Source: Octopus vulgaris
Taxonomy: Eukaryota
NCBI GenBank assembly: GCA_951406725.2
Contig: OX597822.1
Coordinates: 34,844,001 to 34,908,000, forward strand
DNA length: 64,000 bases
Reading direction: 5' to 3'
Shown here: positions 3,200-62,099 of the stretch, in pieces
Numbering within the stretch: position 1 is the first letter of the stretch
Layout: every line of letters begins with the position of its first letter
Program-made: the position numbers and the translations under genes
The notes under the pieces: model-generated
Told to the model about the DNA's origin: nothing
What the model saw: only the letters and a program-made list of their open reading frames with translations
Database searches by the model: none

Positions 3200-3638
3200 T
3201 GGACGATCCAATGCCACCCAGTACACTTCAGGAAAGAAGACATCTGGAAGGCACCGAAGAACCTGTAAATTCTACCTGCGGGGCAAATGTTGGCATGGTG
3301 AGGACGGCAAAAACTACCGGTTCGCCCACCCGACACCCCGCCAGAACTTCAGGGGACTCAAAGAGAAAAGCTTTAGCAAGGGGACACAAGAAATGTGTCC
3401 CAGGAAAAGTTTCAAAAACGAAGTGCGCTCCTCAGACGTTCTGCGCAACGCAGCAGCTGAGCAAGAGTCTTTTTTATGCATGGCGCAAAGAATTGTCCGG
3501 CAGCTAACCTGGCTACACCAAGCACAGAGAAGGAACCCTGCCCACCAGAGAAGGAACTATGCAAGACCACCACAGTCAACAGACACGGGATGGCCTCCCC
3601 TAACGCCTGCACAGCCGTCACCCCAATACTTTTACTAA
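3200..3638 (+). pseudogene. LINE ORF1 remnant with CCCH-type zinc finger
   Basis: CKFYLRGKCWHGEDGKNYRFAHP: the third Cys position reads Y; lies immediately upstream of the APE domain. Confidence 0.6.
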
Positions 3639-6583
3639 ATATTGGGGGCCTGTTGCATCAAAATAGAAACAAAATGTCTTTCCTGCGAGATCTTACTGCA
3701 TGCAATCAATCCCTATGCATAGCACTTGTGGAAACTCACCTCAACCCTGATATAGAGGACGCAGCAGTACACATACCAAACTATGCCATACTGCGAACAG
3801 ACAGAAGGGAAAGGAGCTATGGTGGAGTTGCTGTATACATCCGAGATGACCTCACACCCCAGGTCTTAATGACATACTCAAATTCGGTATGTGACACTTT
3901 AATTGTATACATAAGAAAACATAATATAGTCATATGCAATACATATTGCCCACCGGATGCCTCAAATCACATAGGCAAGTTTGAAGATTGCCTCACAAGA
4001 ATTAAATAAATCCTCAGGAATCTGGAACACAACGTGACCATATTTCTTATGGGTGATTTCAACTTCCCCAACGTCAAATGGCCCGAAGGTCACATACTAT
4101 CAGGAAGGAATCATTGCAAGCAAGTACAGGTGGAGTCCCTGCTCAACCTCACCAATGCCTTATTCATGGAGCAAGTTGTACTCAAGCCAACTAGGGCGAA
4201 TAACATTCTGGATCTCTGCTTCACCAACAATATGGACATCATTCATGATGTGAAAGTGACACTGACATCAGTTGCGGATCACAACATAATAGAGCTGTCT
4301 ATGTTTGGGCCAAAAATAACCAGAGACATACAGCTTAAAGGAAGCACCCGAAATCTCTCCAATCTGAAATTCCACAAAGCAGATTGGAAATTGATCCAAA
4401 AAGGGATCGTCAGAGAGGACTGGCCGGAATGTCTCTCCACACCAGACATTGACATGAAACTAGAATGTTTCATATCTTCTGTGCAAGCCGTATGCCAGAA
4501 ATATGTCCCAGAGCACAAGGCCAAAACAAATAGGAGCAAGATTCCAAGAGACAGGAAGATCCTCATGAGACGACGGACAAAGGTTGCAAATCGTCTCAAC
4601 CAACATCCCAAAACTAGCGAAACATCCCGCCTAAAAACAAAACTGATGGAAATCGAAAAAAGGCTGCAACAATCCTATGTAAAGGAGAAAGCAGACAAAG
4701 AAGCCCGGGTTATAAAAAGCATTAAATCAAACCCAAAGGCCTTCTTTCATTACGCGAAAGAAACAGTCTCAGTGCACTACAAGATAGGACCCACCTCCAA
4801 AAGGATGGCTCCTTCACAGACAGTCCAACTAAGATCAGTGAGATGCTGAATGACCAGTTCAAAAGTTTCTTTACCACCCCGTTGGAACACAGACAAGTGA
4901 ACGAATGAGTGGACTTCTTTGCCGCCTCACATATAACCAGCGAGGCGGTTACAATAGAATGTATTGACATTAGCGAAAAAGATGTCCTACTAGCCATAGA
5001 TGAAGTGGACTCAAACTCAGCTGCTGATCCAGATGGTTTCCCAGCAATCCTCCTCAAAGCGTGTACGATGCCCTGGCAAAACCCTTCAAGATTCTCTTCC
5101 AGAGCTTTCTTGCGAATGGCAAACTGCCAAGCAAGCTGAAGGAGGGAATAATATGCCCAATACATAAAGGGGGAAGTAGAGCAGATGCCAAAAATTATAG
5201 GCCTATCTCTCTCACTTCACACATCAGCAAAGTCATAGAATGGATAGTCAGAAAGAAACTGATCGCATTCCTTGAGGAAAATAACTTGCTGAGTGATACC
5301 CAGCATGGTTTTCGACCAGGTAGGAGCTGCCTGACCCAGCTCTTACAACATTATGACGGGGTGTTGAGGCAGTTACTCAACAAATCAAATGTGGACGTAA
5401 TCCACCTTGATTTTGCAAAAGCTTTTGACAAGGTTGATCATGGTATGATATGCCACAAACTGCGTGACCTCGGTATAGCTGGAAAACTTGGAGTGTGGTT
5501 ACATTACTTCCTGAAAGATAGGAGTCAAGCAGTAGTGGTTAATGGAGCCACCTCTATGAACACACAAACGGTGAGCGGTGTTCCACAGAGCACTGTCTTG
5601 GGACCACTGCTTTTTATAGTGGCCCTCTCAGATACGCCCTCAAATGCCCGGATAGCCACTCTGGCCAGCTATGCAGACGATACGAAAGTTTCGCAGAAAA
5701 TACAGAACCCCAGCGATGTTGCACACCTGCAGCAGGAGTTGGATTCAATCTACAGATGGGCTGAGGATAATAATATGCAGGTTAATGCTGAAAAATTCCT
5801 GACCCTGCGCAACCAGCATCCAAAACTGAATATTAAACTTACAGGATACACTGGTTCACAGGGAATTTCAATCCCAGAGCCTAAGTCTGTGAGGGACCTG
5901 GGTATCGACATGAGTGATGATACCTCTTTCCAATGCACATTACCAGGATGGCGACAGAGTGCAGACGACTGGCTGGGTAGATCCTAAGAACATTCAGAAC
6001 CAGAGATAAGGAAACCATAATGGTTCTATGGAGGACATTCGTTCTCAGCCGCCTGGATTACTGCTCACAGCTATGGTCACCCACCAGTGTAAAATTAACA
6101 GCGGACCTTGAAGCAATCCAGAGAAGATTCACAAAGAAGATCGTCTCTTTGCAACAGCTCAGATACTGGGAAAGGTTGAAACAGCTAAGACTCTACTCCC
6201 TGGAGAGAAGACGGGAGAGGTATGCAGTAATATATGTCTGGAAGATCCTGGAAGGAATTGTGCCAAATTTTGGCATTGTAAGCTACACCAGTGCTAGAAC
6301 GGGAAAACACTGCATAGTGCCAAAGATCGCAGCAATACCATCACGCTTCAGGACCAGCTTCTGCAACAGCCTGGGTTTCAAGGGCCCACAGCTTTTTAAT
6401 ATTCTCCCAAAGAGTCTGAGGAACTTGAACAAAGTAGATGTAGCGGTTTTTAAATCAAAGCTGGACATCTTCCTGTCGAGAGTCCCAGATGAACCTACCT
6501 CACGGCAAGAGGTGCACATGAGAGTAGCTATATCAAAGTCCATTCTTCACCAAGTGCCACATATTACACGAGGTTCTTCGTAA
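3620..6583 (+). pseudogene. LINE ORF2 (APE endonuclease + reverse transcriptase), disrupted
   Basis: APE motifs LLNIGGL, ALVETHL, GGVAVYIR, MGDFNFP, LDLCFTN, DHN; RT motifs NYRPISLTS, QHGFRPGRSC, LDFAKAFDKVDH, GVPQSTVLGPLLF, YADD. In-frame stops at ~4007 and ~4906; frameshifts near 4795, 5065 and 5930. Confidence 0.93.
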
Positions 6584-6908: not shown

Positions 6909-7509
6909 TAAGAGAGTTGATGTATGAAAGCACGTGGCTGGATGTATAAAAAATAAAAATGAGTGAAAAACTACAGAAGGCTTGTGTTATAATGTTAAAG
7001 AATATATTTAAGTCGTTTTGTTAGAAAAATGTTAGAAAATTTTGTGTATAGTAACATAGTTTTGGGAGAAATAACCAGTTTCGTATTTTCTTTTCAAATT
7101 TCTGAAATGTCTTTATCTACATCGTGTCATGTCTTTGCTAGGTTGTGAAATATGGGGTTCCAGGCAGGGGAAGGTAATCAGGGATTTCTTCCGGTATAAG
7201 AGAGATAAACAAACTTGTTGGGTATGACTAAATAAATATTATTTAGTTTAGAAGAAACAGAATGTTGTCAGCTTTTGCTTTATATCTTTTCTCACAAAGA
7301 TCCCCACAAAAAAATAGATCCTCACAAAGGCAAAATTGTTTTCTGAAATAACGGATGCAAAAGTAAAAAAATGTGGTAGACCAAACTGCGCAATATGCCC
7401 AAACCTTCTAGAAGGATCAAAATTCCTCTTCAAAGAGGGACAAAATTTCAAGATCAAATCTAATTTTACGTGTGCTTCAGAAAATATCATAAGGTGTTCG
7501 GGCTGCCAG
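6907..7509 (+). mobile_element. Penelope-like element fragment (Cys-rich linker upstream of GIY-YIG endonuclease) next to (TA)n
   Basis: 7318-7509 encodes ILTKAKLFSEITDAKVKKCGRPNCAICPNLLEG...FKIKSNFTCASENII-RCSGC, matching the Cys-rich linker and start of PLE GIY-YIG domains; preceded by non-coding pLTR-like sequence that starts at the (TA)n edge. Confidence 0.75.
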
Positions 7510-11782: not shown

Positions 11783-12160
11783 AAGGCGGAAACGTTAGCA
11801 CGCCGGGCGAAATGCTTAGCGGTATTTCGCCTGCCATTACGTTGTGAGTTCAAATTCCGCCGAGGTCGACTTTACCTTTCATCCTTTCGGGGTCGATAAA
11901 CTAAGTACCAGTTACGCACTGGGGTGGATGTAATCGACTTAATACCCATGTCTGTCCTTGTTTGTCTCCTCTATGTTTAGCCCCTTGTGGATAATAAAGA
12001 AATAGGTATTTCGTCTGTCTTTACGTAAATTCCGCCGTTCAAATTACGTTCCGAATTCAAATTCGGGTTCGATAAATTAAGTACCTGTTGCATACCGGGG
12101 TCTATCTAACCGATTGGCCCCCTCTCTAAGAATTTCGAACCTTGTGCCTAGAGTAGAACT
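11783..12160 (+). mobile_element. SINE family A (partial dimer) inserted in mariner
   Basis: GAGTTCAAATTCC B box and CTTTCATCCTTTCGGGGTCGATAAA core; probable TSD TAATTGCTGA(T/C)GTT at 11769-11782 and 12165-12178. Confidence 0.85.
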
Positions 12161-12705: not shown

Positions 12706-13145
12706 TAGGCGTACTTGCTGATCTTTTAGTAGAAAGAACAACGCACCGAAGTGTGCCAAGATCTCTGTCAACGTGTCGCTGATGACCCATCTTTCATGTC
12801 GAGAATCATCACCGATGACAAGAATTGGGTGTGCAGATCCGACCCTGTGACGAAGCAGCAGTCGTCATAATGGAAAAGTCTTTCTTCTCCATGGCCGAAT
12901 AAGGCATGACAGAGCCGCAGATCAATCAAGATCATTCCCATCGTATTTTTCAACATCCGCTGTATTGGGCATTCGTTTCTCAGGGCCTGAGCGTCAATCG
13001 AGAGTTCTACAGTGATATTTTGAAGCGTTTGTGGGTGGATATTCGGCGAAAGCGACTGGATCTGTGGAGTCCGAAGAATTGGATTCTTCATGACAACAAT
13101 GCACTCTGTCATCGAGTTCTCCTCACTGGTGACTCTCTTGTCATA

Positions 13146-13378
13146 AAGCGGCGAGCTGGCAGAAACGTTAGCACACCGGGCGAAATGCTTAGCGGTATTG
13201 CGTCTGTCGTTAGGTTCTGAGTTCAAATTCCGCCGAGGTCGACTTTGCCTTTCATCCTTTCGGGGTCGATAAATTAAGTACCAGTTACGCATTGGAGTCG
13301 ATGTGATCGACTTAATCCGTTAGTCTGTCCTTGTTTGTCCCCTCTAGGTTTAGCCCCTTGTGGGCAATAAAGAAAGAG
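13146..13378 (+). mobile_element. SINE family A monomer
   Basis: GCGGCGAGCTGGCAGAAACGTTAGC...GAGTTCAAATTCC...GCCTTTCATCCTTTCGGGGTCGATAAATTAAGTACCAG (resembles the MetaSINE central domain)...GCCCCTTGTGGGCAATAAAGAAA. Confidence 0.9.
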
Positions 13379-13864: not shown

Positions 13865-15027
13865 ACGGAACGGACGGAATCGCCCGTCGTCGCCCGTCCC
13901 GAACGGCTCACACAAGTTCCGCCACGGAACCCAAAGAGGCGGAGAGAGGAGATACAGATAGATACTGCCACAACCTCAACAGCACAGAGATACAATCCAA
14001 AGAGAGGCAAGGCAACAGAGACACTGGCTTATATATTCAACAGCTACCAGTTTATATGACAATCAATTGCTACACATCAAATACATTTAAGGCAGACATT
14101 TAAAGGAAGACATGCACGTGACTACTCAATACATCATACAACAGATCAAAGCATAATACAACAGCAATTCATGTAACAATATATCAGTCCGGAGACACAA
14201 CAAGTCATATACAGTATTTCAAAGGTACACGTCCGAAGACACAGTTCTATTAAAGTCTGTCTCTACACATCACAGATAACGTCACATCAACAAGTCCTTT
14301 ACTCTTCAATTCACAATGTTCTTTATCGACTACATCGACAGAGTCCTTGACTGTTCTTTTCACTGTTCAATACACCGTGACACATATCAATGCACAAACA
14401 CATACCTCAATTCCTAATTGAATCTGCCAGTGTCCCATTCCTCTCAATACTGCTAAATCCTCTGTACATATCCCTTCTGTGCCGCCAAGCTTTCCCGCAT
14501 CAACTTGCTCCTAAAATTCCAACGCTTCTAAGATTCCATCTACTCGCTCTGACTTCCAGGATCCGACTGTCTTCTTCGAGGACCGGCCAGCGACCGCAAG
14601 ATCCGTCTGTGTTCTTCGACGACCGTTCAACGACTCCAAGACCTCACTTCGTCTCTGTCCTTCTTCCACTCCCTCATCTCCCTCTGTACCGCTCACACCC
14701 TCTCTAACTGCCCTGGTCCCTATACTCTATCTATATCCTCAATCTGTCCCTTACTGCTTATCCTCTACCTCTCTCATGACAGCTCTACCAAACTCTCTGC
14801 CTGTCCTTCTCTCCTACTGTCAATACCCTCTCCATCTGCTCTTAGATTCCCTTAATCTGTCCTCCTCTTCACTTCTTCAAGGGGTGCTTAGAATGACCTC
14901 CAATCGACCGCACAAGGCCAGAAAGGTCTCATTAATCTCCCAGTAGACAAAGGACCCGTCACATTTTTACCAGGCATGCTGGCACCATAATTCCTAAGTG
15001 GGTCACCAGAAATGCACTTAGCCAACA
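13861..15027. mobile_element. Probable solo LTR (Gypsy/BEL-like)
   Basis: About 1.17-kb GC-richer non-coding block bounded by TGTT...AACA with TATAT on both sides, inside a TA tract. Confidence 0.65.
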
Positions 15028-15136
15028 TATATACTCATATATATATACACACATATATATATACAAAACTACTAAAAATAAACAAAATATTACCGAATGC
15101 AAAACTTCAAAACACATCATTTTAAAAAAGAATTCA

Positions 15137-15200
15137 GTTACATATCACATGTGATTTCGCATTTAATGCAGAATATGCATTTCATGTTCGTCAGTGCAAC
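15137..15200 (-). ncRNA. Type I hammerhead ribozyme (minus-strand copy)
   Basis: GTTGCA CTGACGA ACAT-GA-AATGCA-TATTC-TGCATT-AA-ATGC GAAA TCACATGTGA TA TGTAAC. Confidence 0.8.
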
Positions 15201-15540
15201 AAACTCAAGAGATATAAGAAAAAACATAACATTACAAATTGCCTAGTCGGAATAAAAATTCAGTATTGAACTATTCCGGTGAAAAATATAAATTAACAAT
15301 TGAGGATAAAATCTTTAAAAGAAATTATCAGTAGTCAGCGTGAAAAACCTCGTAAGAGAAAAAATCCGTAAATTCTTCCTCTTTGAAAATATTCATTTAT
15401 ATTTGTTACCGAAATGCATTGCGAAAAAGCCCGCCATTTTCATAGATATGTAAGGATAAACATTCGTACATGCTACGATGAATTCTACGGTTGGCTATCG
15501 AGTTTGTAATGTTATGTTTTTTCTTATATCTCTTGAGTTT

Positions 15541-15604
15541 GTTGCACTGACGAACATGAAATGCATATTCTGCATTAAATACGAAATCACATGTGATATG
15601 TAAC
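15541..15604 (+). ncRNA. Type I hammerhead ribozyme
   Basis: Stem I GTTGCA/TGTAAC, core CTGACGA (15547-53), stem II AATGCA/TGCATT, GAAA (15583-86), palindromic stem III TCACATGTGA, AUA cleavage triplet. Confidence 0.78.
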
Positions 15605-15844
15605 TGAATTCTTTTTTAAAATGATGTGTTTTGAAGTTTTGCATTCGGTAATATTTTGTTTATTTTTAGTAGTTTTGACCGCATTGGTCCCTCTTAGCGT
15701 GTTGGTATCTACTAATAGTAGTACCCTCATTATAATATCAATGAATATTTTCAAAGAGGAAGAATTTACGGATTTTTTTCTCTTACGAGGTTTTTCACGC
15801 TGCCTACTGATAATTTCTTTTAAAGATTTTATCCTCAATTGTTA

Positions 15845-15846
<2 letters not shown>

Positions 15847-15878
<32 letters not shown>

Positions 15879-16195
15879 GTATATATATCTATATATATAT
15901 ATGTATATATGTATATGTATATATATATATGTATATATATATATATGTATATGTATATATATATATGCATATGTATATATATATACATATGTATATGTAT
16001 ATATATATACATATGTATATGTATATATATATATATGTATATGTATATATATACATATGTATATGTATATATATATACATATGTATATGTATATATATAT
16101 ACATATGTATATGTATATATATATATATGTATATGTATATATATACATATGTATATGTATATATATATACATATGTATATGTATATATATATATG

Positions 16196-16230
<35 letters not shown>

Positions 16231-16463
16231 GTATATATATATGTATATATAGATGTATATATATATATGTATATATATATGTATATATATATGTATATAT
16301 ATATGTATATATATATGTATATATATATATGTATATATATATATGTATATATATATATATGTATATATATATGTATATATATGTATATATATATGTATAT
16401 ATATATATGTATATATATGTATATGTATATATACATATATGTATATATATATGTATATATACA

Positions 16464-16508
<45 letters not shown>
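15847..16508. repeat. Compound (TA)n/(TATG)n microsatellite
   Basis: Directly visible. Confidence 0.95.
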
Positions 16509-16585
16509 GTAGGTCCCGGGTTGAGTCGGGGTTAACCACAGTAAATAAGGTACTCAATACATAGCAGAGTAAATTAATTTATATG

Positions 16586-22940: not shown

Positions 22941-23206
22941 TATAATATAAAATTCAGTACACGTGTCACACACAACTTTATACATCGATAATGAAATACT
23001 GTTACATAAAATCGTAAAGGACCACAACAAAACCTACCATCGAGATAACATACACAAAAGAAGCAATCGGACAATCAAACTGACCTTTACATTTTTACAA
23101 AACAAATAATCTAGCATAGCATGAACGGGCTTTAAACCGCACACTACAAGGTGTATATCCGAATGTAAAATTATGTGTATGTGTGTAGGATTCTCCACAC
23201 TGTTTC

Positions 23207-23625
23207 CTATTTCTTTATTACCCACAAGGGGCTAAACATAAAGAGGACAAAATAGGACAGACAAACGGACTAAGTCGATTACATCGACACCAGTGCGTTA
23301 ACTGGTACTTAATTTATCGATCCCGAAAGGATGAAAGGCAAAGTCGACCACGGCAGAATTTAAACTCAGAAGGTAAAGACAAACAAAATACCTATTTCTT
23401 TAATACCCACAAGGGGCTAAACACAGAGAAGACAAACAAGGTCAGACAAAGGGATTAAGCCGATTATATCGACTCCAGTGCGTAACTGGTACTTAATTTA
23501 TCGACCCCGAAAGGATGAAAGGCAAAGTCGACCTCGGCGGAATTTGAACTCAGAACGTAGCGGCAGACGAAATACCGCAAACTATTTCACCCGGCGTGGT
23601 AACGTTTCTGCCAGCTCGCCGCCTT
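23207..23625 (-). mobile_element. SINE family A tandem dimer
   Basis: Two ~185-bp units plus head; short GTTTCC direct repeat on both flanks; sits inside an older family B copy. Confidence 0.88.
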
Positions 23626-24346
23626 AGTTTCCATGTACCAAATTCACTCACAGGGCATTAAACCGCCCAATGCTACAATAGAGGGCAACTGTTCAAGGTT
23701 CTGCGCAGCGGGATTGAAACTGAAACCACAGGTTTGGGAGGGAACTTCTTAACCACACAGCATTGTCTGCGCCTATAATTATTTTGTCGATAAAGTATGT
23801 AAATTTTTCTCTCAATAAAGCCTAGTCGTAAGACAGCCGCAATCCTTCTTATATTAGTGGACGGAAAGGAGCCAGCCAATAAACAGCTGCAGAATAATTA
23901 GATAGCAATTCTATTTTAATTCTGTTTCATGTATTTCTGAAGTGGTATCTCATAGCTGATAGGAGTGACCAATTCAATACAGTGCTCGCCAATTCAATAC
24001 AGTGTCAAAATAAGCACCTCGCGGTTAGGTGTCATTCACTCTCATGAGCCTTGAACTTTTCAGTTCATTGCAATACAGCGAATAATTAAATAGCTTTGTT
24101 CTTATACTGGTGAATACCAAATATTTATATCTTGTATTGGGTGTCTGCTGTCGTCGCTCCGACTAACGAGAGTTGAGCAAGACACAGCTGCAAATAATGT
24201 TGGTGCCCTGCTTTGCTGAAAAATCTGCACGATAAATATTATTATAGTTTGTGCAGAGCCAGTCCTACTATCTTGCATTTTAAATTTCTTTTCGTCCACT
24301 GCGACGAGTGCTACAACCCCGGTGTTTATCAGGATGCAGGATTTGC

Positions 24347-29736: not shown

Positions 29737-29980
29737 CTATATAATAAAGGTGGCTTTATTTACATTATTTACATTCGATGGATATTTGTCCTCATCTTGT
29801 TAACACAACGTTTCGGCTGATATACTTTCTAGCCTTCTTCAGGTATCTTCGGGAAATTTCGAACCTGGATTCTGATTTCTAAAGTATTTTTCGATGTTAT
29901 TATTATTATTATTGTTCAGGTAACTGCTTGGAATCGAACTCGGAATCTTGAGGTTAGTAGCCCGCGCTCTTAACCACTAC

Positions 29981-30069: not shown

Positions 30070-30308
30070 TTAAGGGTAGAAATTGATATTTATCAATTAA
30101 GACCAGTGGTCTAGCATATTAAAAAAGAATCCGAAGATTAAAATATTTATATATACCAATTAAGGACTGAACACGAAAAGTGGACAGTCAACATGCTAGA
30201 TATAGACGTCAAATCGTCATTCTCCACAAAAGATTATGTTCTCAGATCAAACTCAACACAAAACCATAGCAATAAACAAGTGAAAAATATACGAAATAAA
30301 ATAATTAC

Positions 30309-30373
30309 CCATGTACTAACTTAGTTTCAGCTGTTATTTTCCGCAAGGAAAACTGCAGCCATCATCAGCATGG
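30309..30373 (-). ncRNA. Type I hammerhead ribozyme (minus-strand copy)
   Basis: Reverse complement of 30467-30531. Confidence 0.85.
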
Positions 30374-30466
30374 TCCGTTATAAATGTAATTTACAAATTA
30401 CATTTATAACGGACCATGCTGATGATGGCTGCAGTTTTCCTTGCGGAAAATAACATTTATAACGGA

Positions 30467-30531
30467 CCATGCTGATGATGGCTGCAGTTTTCCTTGCGGA
30501 AAATAACAGCTGAAACTAAGTTAGTACATGG
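30467..30531 (+). ncRNA. Type I hammerhead ribozyme
   Basis: CCATG CTGATGA T-GGCTG-CAG-TTTTCC-TTGC-GGAAAA-TAA-CAGCT GAAA CTAA-G-TTAG TA CATGG. Confidence 0.87.
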
Positions 30532-30682
30532 GTAATTATTTTATTTCGTATATTTTTCACTTGTTTATTGCTATGGTTTTGTGTTGAGTTTGATCTGAGA
30601 ACATAATCTTTTGTGGAGAATGACGATTTGACGTCTATATCTAGCATGTTGACTGTCCACTTTTCGTGTTCAGTCCTTAATT

Positions 30683-30738
<56 letters not shown>

Positions 30739-37475: not shown

Positions 37476-37790
37476 ATTGCACACTTATACATTTAAACCT
37501 AGTGAAAGATGGTGAGTCATGGCCGGAATGGCTTTGTTCACATATCCGTTCAGACACAGTTGACCTGAAGCTAATCAGCAAATATACCAACGACGTCGAC
37601 ACAATAGATTGCAATACTAGAAGGAACAATTGTCTCGGTTGCCATAGGAACGTAAAAAGACTAAAGAAGCTGCGATACAGGGGAATATGACTTTAGTTCA
37701 GAAATGTGATAGCAGCCATTTGACATATAATTAGCGCTGAATTACTAAAATCGTCAGAGCAGCGAATGCTTAAATGTATTTGTTCCGAGT

Positions 37791-38582
37791 AAGGCGGTGA
37801 GCTGGCAGAAACGTTAGCACGCCGGGCGAAATGCTTAGTGGTATTTCGTCTGCCGCTACGTTCTGAGTTCAAATTCCACCGTGGTCGACTTTGCCGTTTC
37901 ATCTTTTCGGTGTCGAGTAAATAAGTACAATGTACGCACTGGAGTCGATGTAATCGACTTAATCCCTTTGTCTGTCCTTGTTTGTTCTCTGTGTGTTTAG
38001 CCCCTTGTGGGTAGTAAAGAAATAGGTATTTCGTTTCTCTTTACATTCTGAGTTCAAATTCCCCCGTGGTCGACTTTACCTTCCATCCATTCGGAGTCGA
38101 GTAAATAAGTACCAGTTACGCACTGGAGTCGATGTAATCGACTTAATTCCTTTGTCTGTCCTTGTTTGTTCTCTGTGTGTTTAGCCCCTTGTGGGTAGTA
38201 AAGAAATAGGTATTTCGTTTCTCTTTACATTCTGAGTTCAAATTCCCCCGTGGTCGACTTTACCTTCCATCCATTCGGGGTCGAGTAAATAAGTACCAGT
38301 TACGCACTGGAGTCGATGTAATCGACTTAATCCCTTTGTCTGTCCTTGTTTGTTCTCTGTGTGTTTAGTCCCTTGTGGGCAGTAAAGAAATAGGTATTTC
38401 GTTTCTCTTTACATTCTGAGTTCAAATTCCCCCGTGGTCGACTTTACCTTCCATCCATTCGGAGTCGAGTAAATAAGTACCAGTTACGCACTGGAGTCGA
38501 TATAATCAACTTAATCCCTTTGTCTGTCCTTGTTTGTCCTCTCTGTGTTTAACCCCTTGTGGGTAGTAAAGAAATAGGTATA
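37791..38582 (+). mobile_element. SINE family A tandem tetramer with TSD
   Basis: Head plus four ~183-bp units; TSD TGTTCCGAGT at 37781-37790 and 38583-38592. Confidence 0.92.
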
Positions 38583-46389: not shown

Positions 46390-47300
46390 AAGGTGGTGAG
46401 CTGGCAGAAACGTTAACACGCCTGGCGAAATACATTGTGGTAGTTCGTCTGCTTAGATCTATAAAAACATCCCTCTATTATAATTTCTGGTTTCTGATAT
46501 CCTTTATAAAGCAAAAGAATTTTTATGAAAAATTTGAAATATGGTCTGAGTTCAAATTCCACCGAGGTCGACTTTGCTTTTCATCCTTTCAGGGTCGATA
46601 AATTAAGTACCAGTTACGCACTGGGGTCGATATAATCGATTTAATCCATTTGTCTGTCCTTGTTTCTCCTCTCTATGTTTAGCCCCTTGTGGGTAGTAAA
46701 GAAATAAGTATTTCGTCTGCTGTTACGTTGAGTCCAAAACTCGCCGAGGTCGACTTTACATTTCATCCTTCCGGGATCGATAAATTAAGTACCAATTACG
46801 CACTGGGGTCGATGTAATCGACTTAATCCGTTTGTCTGTCCTTGTTTGGCCCCTCTGTGTTTAGCACTTTGTGGGTAATAAAGAAATAAGAAACGTTAGC
46901 ACACCGGGCAAAATGCTTAGCAGTATTTCGTCTGTCTTTACGTTCTGAGTTCAAATTCCAACGAGGTCGACTTTGCCTTTCATCCTTTCGGGTCGATAAA
47001 TTAAATACCAGTTACCCACTGGGGTCGACGTTATCGACTTAATCCCTTTTGTCCTTGTTTGTCCCCTCTGTGTTTAGCCCCTTGTGATCAATAAAGAAAT
47101 AAGAAAAGCCAGCATGCCGGGCAAAATGCTTAGCAGTATTTCGTCTGTCTTTACGTTCTGAGTTCAAATTCCACCGAGGTCGACTTTGCTTTTCATCTCT
47201 TCTAGGTCGATAAATTAAGTACCAGTTACGTACTTGGGTCGATCTTGTCGACTGGCCCCCTCCCACCAAAATTCAGGCCGTGTGCCTAGAGTAGAAAAGA
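46390..47300 (+). mobile_element. SINE family A tandem array (4 units) with templated insertion in the first head
   Basis: Repeated GGTCGACTTT..CTTTCATC..GTCGATAAATTAA units; the last unit has the alternative tail GGCCCCCTCCC...GTGCCTAGAGTAGAAAAGA. Confidence 0.9.
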
Positions 47301-55368: not shown

Positions 55369-56136
55369 CCCTCCCTCTGTCGGTTTGCCCCGCTCTCTGT
55401 GTCTCTGTCTTTCTCTTCGTACGTCTATCTCTTTTTCTTCTCCCTGAAACTCATTCTTTTTACGATAAACGTGATGTCCCTGTTGCATTGGGTTTCTTCT
55501 TTTTCATCTCTGCTGTCATTGTCTTTGCTATTGCTGACTGTCAACTTCAACGACTTGCGTGTATGTATATGCGTGCATATATGAGCGTATTTGTGTGTGT
55601 TTGTGTGCGCCTGTGTGTGTTTGTGTGTGCGTAGATGCAGATATAGTAGAGTTGCTATCAATGTCGACCAACATCGTAAAAGCGAAGTCCCATGAGAGAA
55701 AAACTACATTCTGTAATCGAGTCTGAAAGGATACAAATTAGAAAAATAGTAACATAAATTGATCCTAGTATCAGCATTTCTTTCTGTCTTCCTTTGTAAT
55801 TAATATCACATAAATTGATCGCTGTGAGTTGGTAGTGGTGCGTGCTTGTATATCACGCATCATTTTTTAAAAATTATACATATATATATATTAAATAGAG
55901 ACATTGTTTGTTAAACACTTATGTCCCTGTGACGCAGCCGTCTAGCTGATTGCGCTGTTAAAGGAAAGTTTGCTGGCTAAAACCCAGGCAGTGAGCTGGT
56001 ATAATCGTTAGCGTGTCGATCACAATGCTAAGCAACTTTTCTTTTCGTTTTGTTCGAATTCCGCCGAAATCGACTTTGCGTTTCGGCGTACACGGCTTGG
56101 CAATATATTTACCAGCTGAACATTGCAATTGATACA

Positions 56137-56737
56137 TATTTCTTTACTACCCACAAGGGGCTAAACACAGAGAGGACAAACAAGGACAATCAAACGGATT
56201 AAATCGATTACATCAATCCCAGTGCGTTACTGGTACTTAATTTATCGACCCCGAAAGGATGAAAGGCAAAGTCGACCTCGGCGGAATTTGAACTCAGAAC
56301 GTAGCGGTAGACGAAATACCTATTTCTTTACTACCCACAAGGGTCTAAAAACAGAGAGGACAAACAAGGACAGACAAACGGATTAAGTCGATTATATCGA
56401 CCCCAGTGCGTTACTGGTACTTATTTAATCGACCCCGAAAAGATGAAAGGCAAAGTCGACCTCGGCGGAATTTGAACTCAGAACGTAGCGGTAGGCGAAG
56501 TACCTATTTGTTTACTACCCACAAGGGGCTAAACACAGAGAGGACAAACAAGGACAGACAAACGGATTAAGTCGATTATATCGACCCCAGTGCGTAACTG
56601 GTACTTAATTTATCGACCTCGAAAGGATGAAAGGCAAAGTCGACCTCGGCGGAATTTGAACTCAGAACGTAGCGGTAGACGAAATACGGCTACGCATATC
56701 GCCCGGTGTGGTAACGTTTCTGCCAGCTCGGCGTCTT
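56137..56737 (-). mobile_element. SINE family A tandem trimer with TSD, nested in an older family A copy
   Basis: Three ~183-bp units plus head; TTGATACA at 56129-56136 and 56740-56747. Confidence 0.92.
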
Positions 56738-58523: not shown

Positions 58524-59445
58524 TATCAAGAGAGCAATAGAGAGGGAGAGATGGATGGATGGATGCATTCATACATTATAGTTGTATGTTTCCGTGCAGA
58601 TTCAGCCTTGATTGTAAAAACGGAATCCTACGAGGATAAAGTTATATTTTTATAGACTGGTCTTAAAAGCTGTCACTTGAGATATTTTCATGAATATATG
58701 GACGCATCATTTTTGTGCTATAAGCTACACACAAATACATTGATTGAAATACGTCGCTTTAAAATTTCGTTTACAATTTCCTCACATCAATTTTTTAATG
58801 CGTTTGGGCGGAAGTGACAATACAATTCTGCTCCTGCGCTCTAAAAGTACACAATCAGTCATATGTTGCAAGTAGTCCTATCCTTATATATCATCTGCTA
58901 CACGTGGGTAATTTTATCGATTTTGATGAAACTTGACACATGAGTAGAACTCATGGCTGTAAACCTCATGACATACTCATATTGTTAAAGAAAATCGATA
59001 ATAGGGCCCCTGGAATGGATACTTGTATATATCTAATATATTTTATTTTAAAAACCAAGGGAAATCATACATTCGATCCAGCAAGGGATCCTTATATATC
59101 ATTTTCCTAAATTATTGCAGTGTATCCAGTGCAAATCTTAAACAAGTAAATAGGATTTTCCTAATCAATAGATCCACTTATTTCGGTTAGTGACTTATTC
59201 AGGAATATACTAACACTAGCGCCCCTGAGGGTAATATTCTCTGTGAACGCACAAAAGCACTTTTCAGAGTTATTTACTTTGAATTGTTATTATCTCATAT
59301 CTAATTTTTCTGTTATTACGTAATATGCTTCACGATTTTTAGTATCTCCCCTATGTCCTATATACTCTTGGAACACATTAAAGCCCATTTCGGGGCTACT
59401 TTATTTGAGTTCTTTCTATCGAGTAACTAATTTGATGCTATTATA

Positions 59446-60590
59446 GAAGTCAGGTGGTAGTAACCAATGGGGCCACTTCCATTAACACGCAAATAGTGAG
59501 CGGTGTTCCGCAGGGCACTGTTTTGGGACCACTACTGTTCATAATGGCCCTCTCAGACATGCCCTCAGCCACGCAGAGAGCCACGATCACAAGTTATGCA
59601 GATGATACAAAAGTTTCACAGGCAATACAGAACCCTGAAGACACTAAGCACCTGCAATGTGAGCTGGACAAAATATACAAGTGGGCTGAAAAGAATAGCA
59701 TGCAGTTCAATACTGAAAAGTTTCAAGCTTTATGCTATCAGCATGCAAAACTAAATGCAATACCCAATAAATACACTAGACCTGGAGGGATTGCAATCCT
59801 AGAGGCACAATCAGTGCGAGACCTAGGTATTTACATGAGTGATGATGCAACCTTTCATGTGCATGTTGCTAAATTGGCAATGAAATGTAGGCGGCTGGCC
59901 GGATGGATTCTTAGAACCTTTAGAACAAGAGACCAGGAAATCATGATGGTCCTCGGGAGGACACTTGTCCTAAGCCACTTTGACTATTGCTCTTAGCTAT
60001 GGTCACCATCCAGTGTCAACTTAATCACAGAACTTGAGGCGATCCAACGAAGCTACACGAAGAAGATAGCCTCTGTGCAGCATATAAGCTACTGGGAAAG
60101 ACTCAAGAGACTAAGAGTCTATTCCTTAGAGCGTAGACGAGAAAGATATGCCATAATATATATCTGGAAGATCCTAGAAGGACTTGTCCCAAACTTTGGC
60201 ATCGATAGTTACACAAATGCCAGAACTGGGCGCTACTACATAGTGCCAATGACTCCAAATTTGCCATCAAGATGTAGGACAAGGTACTGTGATAGTCTGG
60301 GCTTCAGAGGCCCACAGCTCTTCAATATCCTCCCGAAGAACCTGAGAGACCTGCAGGGGGTGGATGCAGATGTCTTTAAAATAAAACTGGATCTCTTCTT
60401 GTCAGGTGTCCCAGATGAACCAACTTCACGGCAGGAGGTACAGATGAGGGCAGCTGTATCGAACTATCTCATGCACCAATTGGCAATTGCTAAAAAGCAT
60501 TCGTGAAGTAAAATCATGTAGCAACACCAAATGGCGGTGCCCCAGCATGGCCACAGCTCGTGAGCTGAAACTAGATAAAGATAAAGATAT
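59446..60590 (+). mobile_element. 5'-truncated LINE related to 3122-6655
   Basis: GVPQGTVLGPLLF, SYADDTKV, LERRRERYAIIYIWKILEGLVPN; in-frame TAG at 59994; same 3' hairpin; (GATAAA)n tail. Confidence 0.93.
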
Positions 60591-61417: not shown

Positions 61418-61567
61418 TATATTCCTCTATTTGCATACTATCGTGGTCACTTTCTTTCTTTTGTTATCTTACCGTTTTTATCAATATGTATATATGTGTA
61501 TGTATTATGTATGTATATATGTATGTACGTAGGTATATGTGTATATAAATATATGTATAGAATAAAT

Positions 61568-62046
61568 GTTTTGAATGGCACAACAATGCACTATAATACA
61601 AACAGCGGATTATAATAACTGTTGTTTATTTAATCCTCCATAGTTTGATATGATATTTCGGAATAACAATTCCTTCTTCAGCTATCCCTAAGAATTGATG
61701 TAGTCGCTGCTATAATCGGTTTCCCAACGGCTTTTTATTTTTATATGTATGTGAGTGCATGTGTATATGTGAGTACACTGATTTATTCATACATGTGTAC
61801 GTGTCTAATGTTGACCAAAAATATGTGAGCGTATTTACTCTGCATACTTATGCATAAAAACATTAAGATACAAAAAAACATAAAAAGAAGCCGTTGCAAA
61901 ATCGATTATAGCAGCGACTCCATCAATTCTTAGAGATACCTGAAGAACGAATTTTTTCTCAGAAATATAGACTATGGATGATTAAATTACACCAGTTATT
62001 GTAGTCCAATATTTGTGTTATAGTGCTTTGTTGTGTCATTCAAAAT
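61568..62046. mobile_element. Diverged foldback with a hammerhead core in each arm
   Basis: Arms at ~61568-61750 and ~61878-62046; minus strand CTGAAGA AGGAAT-TGTT-ATTCC GAAA (61681-61656); plus strand CTGAAGA...GAAA (61940-61965). Confidence 0.72.
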
Positions 62047-62099
62047 ATTTTATTCTTTACAAACAATTACACAATGCTTCAAGCGAACTACAATACTCT

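Follow-up and report, generated by a model that had tools for sequence, protein, structure and literature searches.

How does a short locus come to carry two pairs of inverted arms that are interleaved instead of nested? This question is raised by positions 15064-15846 of the window (the whole stretch of 64,000 nucleotides analysed here, which is AT-rich, microsatellite-rich, animal-type DNA). The original prediction held that the order A, B, A', B' implied a circularly permuted hammerhead unit. In this study, we believe it very probable that a Penelope-type element left the locus behind as a short, recent remnant with no detected coding content, made of two overlapping inverted RNA copies in a TA repeat. 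Inverted overlapping copies in a TA repeat are a known habit of Penelope-like elements (PLEs) and are no proof of a circular RNA.

Self-BLAST and an exact-match dot-plot, the check suggested beforehand, confirmed the interleaved, non-nested block order A, s1, B, s2, A', s3, B'. Arm A (15064-15238, minus strand) matched arm A' (15677-15503; plus strand, 15503-15677) at 99.4% over 175 nt (174/175, E 9e-87), the single mismatch being 15160/15581. Arm B (15286-15403) matched B' (15852-15734) at 96.6% over 119 nt (E 2e-51); the cores of these arms, 15292-15397 (minus strand) and 15740-15846 (plus strand), differ by the mismatch 15335/15803 and one indel in a T-run, and the A and B arms together hold 3 positions of difference between the copies. 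The spacers s1 (15239-15291, minus strand), s2 (15398-15502, plus strand), and s3 (15678-15739, plus strand) are 53, 105, and 62 nt long, respectively, and all three are unique in the window. The block order supports the reading of a plus copy (P) with A' then B' and a minus copy (M) with B' then A', and P runs 169 nt further past the end of the A equivalent, where a PLE-mobilised insertion would have a tail of 30-40 bp at one end. The GC content was 26-40% across the segments. TA repeats start at both outer ends of the locus, which lie exactly on the boundaries of the left (TA)n-type microsatellite, the putative target (15030-15063), and of the right (TA)n microsatellite (15847-16510). Elsewhere in the 64 kb window, Self-BLAST found no second set of these arms or spacers (the best remaining match was 26 nt, E 0.043), and self-comparison found no direct repeats above 12 nt within 15040-15860 and thus no direct tandem at the locus. 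An exact 22-nt pattern had 0 matches in bacterial and archaeal genomes, which is uninformative. Two long TA microsatellites flank the locus, and PLE structures are known to trouble assemblies (PMC8557442, PMC3846280), so an assembly or library artefact between the arrays was considered. We regard it as very remote, because three positions distinguish the arms, none of the spacers has a second copy in the window, and fold-back chimeras yield nested arms.

As had been predicted, each A arm carries a hammerhead motif with a palindromic stem III. The CUGANGA, GAAA, and UH boxes occur in order in both arms, helix I has 12 bp with one bulge in both, and a 12-nt palindrome stands at stem III (15586-15597 and 15144-15155). 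The type I motif in A' spans 15535-15611 (+), with its core at 15547 and the predicted cut after 15598; that in A spans 15130-15206 (-), with its core at 15194, N17 and the predicted cut at 15143, and only 3 bp at the base of stem II. The outward-facing cores lie on opposite strands at a distance of 353 bp. A palindromic helix III and action as a dimer are described as typical of PLE motifs (PMC6765202). A structural descriptor, composed after the candidates were known, gave 4 matches in the window (15194, 29842, 30368, and 30472) versus 0 in 40/40 block-shuffled windows; A' fails it through an extra change at 15581, private to that copy, which weakens the base of stem II. In folding, forcing helices I and III cost 2.4 kcal/mol in either copy, and the isolated motif was no better folded than shuffles (z -1.2 and -0.85). 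The Rfam hammerhead families had no match in 15050-15845 at E<=10, where the 4 matches were chance ones and none a ribozyme. Over the whole window, Rfam gave 0 matches at the gathering score, and the matches at E<=1 were microsatellite-driven, with nearly all of them miRNA models among the 150 of 292 matches listed.

G10.1 of the G10.1-C11.1 pair is absent from both A and A' and is kept in the window motifs 29842 and 61681. This pair, after one unpaired nucleotide, is reported as highly conserved in the PLE motifs of Cervera and de la Pena (PMC4209133). A literature search on 10.1/11.1 mismatches found nothing, and the impact that we assign to the loss follows from the reported conservation and from general knowledge of the ribozyme. 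Because G10.1 is missing in both A arms, the odds of self-cleavage and circularisation would be lower, and the ribozyme in each arm, judged from its sequence, is probably damaged. The defect is common to both arms and was probably already in the template; the predicted cut site was passed intact in both M and P.

What class of element does the locus belong to? A profile of 152 PLE proteins searched in six frames gave a significant match only at 7303-7509 (iE 6e-18) and nothing significant in the locus, in which no coding relic of a PLE was detected. Open frames of 74 aa (15621-15845, +) and 84 aa (15590-15841, -) span A'-s3-B' and are probably due to chance. The 84-aa antisense ORF had no homologue among proteins of near length, and a sense frame at 15597-15842 had none among longer proteins, both being weak negatives; the one locus ORF scanned held 0 Pfam families. 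We rejected a decayed GIY-YIG C-terminus as the origin of B', with no profile match and tblastn E values of 0.001 or worse (821-nt subject) in inconsistent frames and positions. As far as these tests reach, the locus appears to be non-coding. It is not an autonomous PLE, having no RT + GIY-YIG ORF, and it does not qualify as a non-LTR retrozyme, having no head-to-tail tandem and a damaged core. The A/A' pair is a hammerhead-bearing pLTR-like repeat with an adjacent inverted 5'-truncated copy, as in PLE-mobilised insertions. The AT-rich, (TA)n target also agrees with such an insertion, weakly, simple repeats making up 8611/64000 bases of the window.

The window holds other repeats. At 30150-30690 (arms 30164-30676), a near-perfect inverted pair carries outward-facing hammerhead motifs at 30368 (-) and 30472 (+), a 53-nt partial tandem at its centre, and (TA)n on its right, which is a textbook truncated PLE insertion of another family. 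An older, decayed inverted pair at 61546-62069 (74% overall) has outward-facing hammerhead-like cores at 61681 (-) and 61940 (+), found by a loose pattern only and not by the strict descriptor. A solo minimal hammerhead motif (29842) with the PLE-type unpaired A and G-C pair lies at 29795-29856 (-). The PLE protein relic at 7303-7509 (+) matches RT/GIY-YIG proteins in the zinc-finger region before GIY-YIG, is 84% identical to P0001, and is presumably Neptune-like by its motif. No hammerhead match was found in a foldback between TA repeats (454-680), an 88-bp inverted pair of 95% identity around a core of ~330 bp (46036-46123/46452-46539), or a 121-bp inverted pair of 98% identity (11117-11237/12333-12453). 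An abundant dispersed repeat (11785-12113, 13144-13378, 23206-23626, 37790-38581, 46545-47253, 56132-56737, and others) has an internal tandem unit of ~184 nt in 1-4 copies, 85-95% identical, with no hammerhead core or Rfam match, and we take it to be SINE-like, presumably of the kind found in octopus. Broken LINE relics at 3461-6580 and 59436-60503, mutually 72% identical, contain endonuclease-like and RT frames (RVT_1 E 8e-29). Just left of the locus, 14380-14950 is strongly C-skewed and looks like a decayed minus-strand coding region; its plus-strand frame held 0 Pfam families.

Reverse transcription of a hammerhead-bearing, terminally redundant template in a PLE or retrozyme context was part of the original prediction and is supported by these data. 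The one common circle that it implied is not supported. The segment from B' to A' is 53 nt in the minus copy (s1 in its sense orientation, s1rc) and 105 nt in the plus copy (s2), so a single circle cannot explain the locus, and the permutation points to terminal redundancy, not necessarily to circularity. The faint similarity seen between the spacers stood at one end and fell at the other. At the B-proximal end, the first ~20 nt of s2 and s1rc match at 18/21 positions, in register at both ends of B (2/20000 shuffles), and form a 21-bp imperfect inverted repeat around B (15273-15415; halves 15273-15293 and 15395-15415); at the A-proximal ends the similarity is at chance (1173/3000 shuffles). 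The 18/21 match may reflect homology of two spacers that follow B', or a minus-strand RNA stem enclosing B', and the evidence does not separate the two cleanly.

A circular RNA of the non-LTR retrozyme kind could still have been the template if it existed as two spacer isoforms, A'-s3-B'-s2 of 449 nt and A'-s3-B'-s1rc of 397 nt. P would then be exactly one round of the 449-nt circle and M a permuted partial copy of the 397-nt isoform, both captured when the two ends of a break were primed together. The start of P falls 1-3 nt or less from the closure point expected, and the circular folds gave z -3.2 (449 nt) and -2.45 (397 nt), whereas other block orders reached -1.2 and -1.8 (with 60 shuffles for each fold). 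The size of this putative unit and the low GC content fit metazoan retrozymes (150-450 bp, <50% GC, as given in PMC7229834), and circles have been proposed as PLE templates (PMC4209133). We nevertheless consider this origin quite improbable. It needs two RNAs that are 98-99% identical in A and B with nearly unrelated spacers, the closure B'|s2 had no folding support (144/150), the locus holds no direct tandem, and both arms lack the G10.1-C11.1 pair.

Folding was also used as an indirect test of native junctions, nine in number. Only s2|A' had a significant folding interaction (z -3.75, 0/150 shuffles), a signal that was noticed before testing and is 1 of 24 duplex tests; it was equalled by 4/250 real genomic 105-mers (from 446 candidates), p about 0.02. 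The 24 duplex tests ranked s2 paired to the 5' part of A' first (1/200), and s2 with the 3' part was next on that strand (13/200). The predicted s2/A' structure is a long imperfect rod of 48 Watson-Crick and 8 G-U pairs versus one C-A mismatch, which pairs both flanks of the hammerhead. As the sole significant junction, s2|A' indicates that s2 would belong to the plus copy, and the folding models give moderate support for native s2|A' adjacency. A 397-nt circle, as the original prediction implied, leaves s2 unexplained, yet s2 folds with A'. The s2-A' interaction also disfavours s2 as foreign filler. Folding support was absent at s3|B' (58/150), B'|s1rc (146/150), s1rc|A' (126/150), and A'|s3 (15/150). 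Decay of a same-strand hammerhead copy into s2 was not accepted (4 to 1424/2000 shuffles over five gap-penalty settings), nor was decay of a hammerhead like 61681 into s1rc (E 1.8), and the s3-B' and A'-B' pairings in the MFE structures were not significant when tested.

The segments also differed in strand preference. B', a G-U-rich hairpin in the hammerhead sense, folded better on that strand (z -1.5/-2.0) than B (+0.4/0); s1rc, which has its own hairpin, reached z -3.1 versus -1.45 for s1; and s2A' reached -2.8 versus -1.2 on the other strand. s3 showed no strand difference.

We consider it very probable that PLE-type retrotransposition, taken over its three readings together, produced the locus. 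The reading that we prefer, to which we give an even chance, is that a PLE RT primed both ends of one (TA)n break on one terminally redundant RNA. A Penelope-like RT/GIY-YIG protein would have made the insertion in trans, using one template of about 677 nt with the putative order 5'-s2-A'-s3-B'-s1rc-A'-3'. The (TA)n tract would have been cut on both strands. From the left end, synthesis would have begun at the 3' boundary of the second, downstream A', where A adjoins the left TA repeat, and would have copied A', s1rc, and B' into M (334 nt); from the right end, it would have begun inside the RNA, where B' meets s1rc, and would have copied B', s3, A', and s2 into P (449-450 nt). The cDNA ends would then have annealed over 8-9 nt near 15397 and joined head-to-head (5'-5', 15395-15403). 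Thus, the A pair would represent the template's pseudo-LTR redundancy, and the B pair the stretch copied twice, where both cDNAs overlap. The spacer s3 may stand at the position of the PLE "tail" or body start, and s2 may be an older, diverged version of s1rc or sequence that flanked the source locus upstream. Impairment of the ribozyme probably goes back to this RNA, and both copies would have read through the cut site.

Read along the minus strand, the locus consists of X in reverse complement and then Y, where X is s2-A'-s3-B' and Y is B'-s1rc-A'; this arrangement is the product expected from double-ended priming on one RNA with overlap over B'. Template switching, which the original prediction called for, can therefore be dispensed with, since double-ended priming on a linear partial-tandem RNA yields this order with no jump. 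One new junction, with no foreign DNA and no jump, explains all seven blocks. The predicted folds are better on the assigned hammerhead-sense strand (s3 neutral), s2 and s1rc appear to follow B' alike in unit order with similar starts (18/21), and the window holds other inverted hammerhead arms and a PLE protein relic. Against linear double-ended priming, the junctions are read from this one copy of the family, and no PLE ORF ties the locus to a PLE family. Both microhomologies are at chance level and not significant in AT-rich DNA: 729/3000 shuffles do as well as the 7/8 nt at the right TA joint, and 433/3000 as the 8/9 nt at the head-to-head junction. Overlaps as long as 107 nt are not known from L1 inversions, which counts against a twin-priming reading here. 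In favour of double-ended priming, a PLE protein in purified form has been shown to cut AT-rich DNA and extend it on both strands, with initiation inside the RNA and no requirement for ribozyme cleavage; the same paper reports initiation without target homology, which counts against the microhomology prediction (PMC11167929). In L1 twin priming, one end primes internally and the cDNAs anneal at short complementarity, as outlined in PMC2912911.

A predicted stable minus-strand stem around B' (domain z -3.9 versus -1.9 on the plus strand) also speaks against the linear partial-tandem RNA and fits another template, s2rc-B'-s1rc-A'-s3, with one template jump. In that case, M would be the whole 439-nt minus stretch 15502-15064, the head-to-head joint would lie at 15502|15503, and P would begin with B' and continue, after the jump, from the 3' terminus of the RNA (s3, A'). 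In this reading, the 21-bp repeat forms a native stem of the RNA around B', at which synthesis could naturally stall, s3 corresponds to a PLE-like tail, and no foreign DNA is required. The folding results argue the other way: s2 folds with A' in the plus orientation and s2rc does not (z -4.4 versus +0.4), the whole minus stretch reaches only z -1.0, and two new junctions are required. We believe that a template jump is unlikely. For the elements that they studied, Arkhipova et al. ascribed head-to-head junctions to self-priming on an antisense template and not to twin priming (PMC3846280).

The order of the arms also raises the question of whether RNA was involved at all. A staggered-break inversion or a replication template switch gives A B X' A' B' directly, which counts for a rearrangement at the DNA level. 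It would have duplicated both breakpoints of an ancestral A-s2rc-B' or, in an alternative form, made terminal inverted copies from s1-B-s2-A'-s3. The s2-A' adjacency would be kept, and B is bounded by an inverted repeat. We hold this origin to be highly unlikely, as it needs filler inserts of 53 and 62 nt or an antisense B', both outer ends of the locus lie exactly on TA-repeat boundaries, and outward-facing hammerhead pairs recur in the window.

The mechanism behind the tandem and inverted insertions of PLEs is still debated, and the locus bears on it. Recently active PLE families have been reported in Octopus vulgaris (PMC13282606), which is relevant if the window is octopus DNA. An insertion that is young and compact, keeps its two flanks, and has junctions that can be read offers useful material for such work. 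A single locus is one more example of the known structural variety of PLEs, and genome-wide mapping of such junctions could separate linear twin priming, template jumping, and circular templates. Circular RNA as a PLE template is presented as proposed and not as shown where PMC4209133, PMC7229834, and PMC11167929 discuss it. If the circular reading were true, the locus would be the genomic footprint of a circular retrozyme RNA copied by PLE machinery; the start points of copies would be spread around a common circle genome-wide, which would test the circRNA-template step and the PLE-retrozyme link.

In the literature searched, which lacked most subscription papers, no description of the exact short non-coding A B A' B' form was found, and parts of it recur in known systems. 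Like L1 5'-inversion by twin priming (as set out in PMC2912911), the locus would have been made from both target ends primed on one RNA, with microhomology joining and a head-to-head junction. Unlike L1 5'-inversion, it has no poly(A) and no TSD readable inside the microsatellite, and it would have had internal starts on both sides, with about 107 nt copied twice from a terminally redundant template. The PLEs described from Adineta vaga (PMC3846280) also share features with it. Like Pen3, whose permuted overlapping halves lie in inverted orientation, the locus has permuted overlapping inverted parts, and like Pen1, with copies of 90% identity around unrelated spacers, it pairs near-identical copies with unrelated spacers. 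Pen1 and Pen3 are coding elements of kb length that lie on detached contigs, where little flank remains and copy collapse was considered; unlike them, the locus is 783 bp long and non-coding, and its flanks are present on either side.

In the account of PMC7229834, the non-LTR retrozymes of metazoans form tandem units of 150-450 bp and are expressed as circles, and an origin from PLEs has been argued for them (bioRxiv 10.64898/2026.07.22.740005). Like these, the locus is non-coding and low in GC, with a type I hammerhead, a putative unit of 397-449 nt, and a link to PLEs. What defines retrozymes is expression as circRNA and a head-to-tail array in which every unit has its complete hammerhead; the locus has no direct tandem, has a damaged core, and is known from sequence alone. 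The word "inverted" does not occur in PMC7229834.

A further close picture is that of truncated EN+ PLE insertions with inverted pLTRs (Penelope/Poseidon and Neptune, as treated in PMC4209133 and PMC8557442). Unlike these, the locus lacks an RT or GIY-YIG relic and G10.1 and has a second inverted pair, B/B'; its helix III of 4 bp plus loop exceeds the 1-2 bp given for most motifs of metazoans. Pairs of hammerheads on opposite strands, separated by 100-700 bp, have been assigned to truncated PLEs (PMC4209133), and a partial tandem flanked by an inverted copy with a truncated 5' end, with (TA)n or other microsatellite targets, is given as the standard PLE picture (PMC8557442). Like such insertions, the locus has type I hammerheads with a palindromic helix III, one on each strand with 353 bp between them, a head-to-head inverted copy, (TA)n flanks, and unequal 3' ends, and it behaves like a non-autonomous copy mobilised by a PLE.
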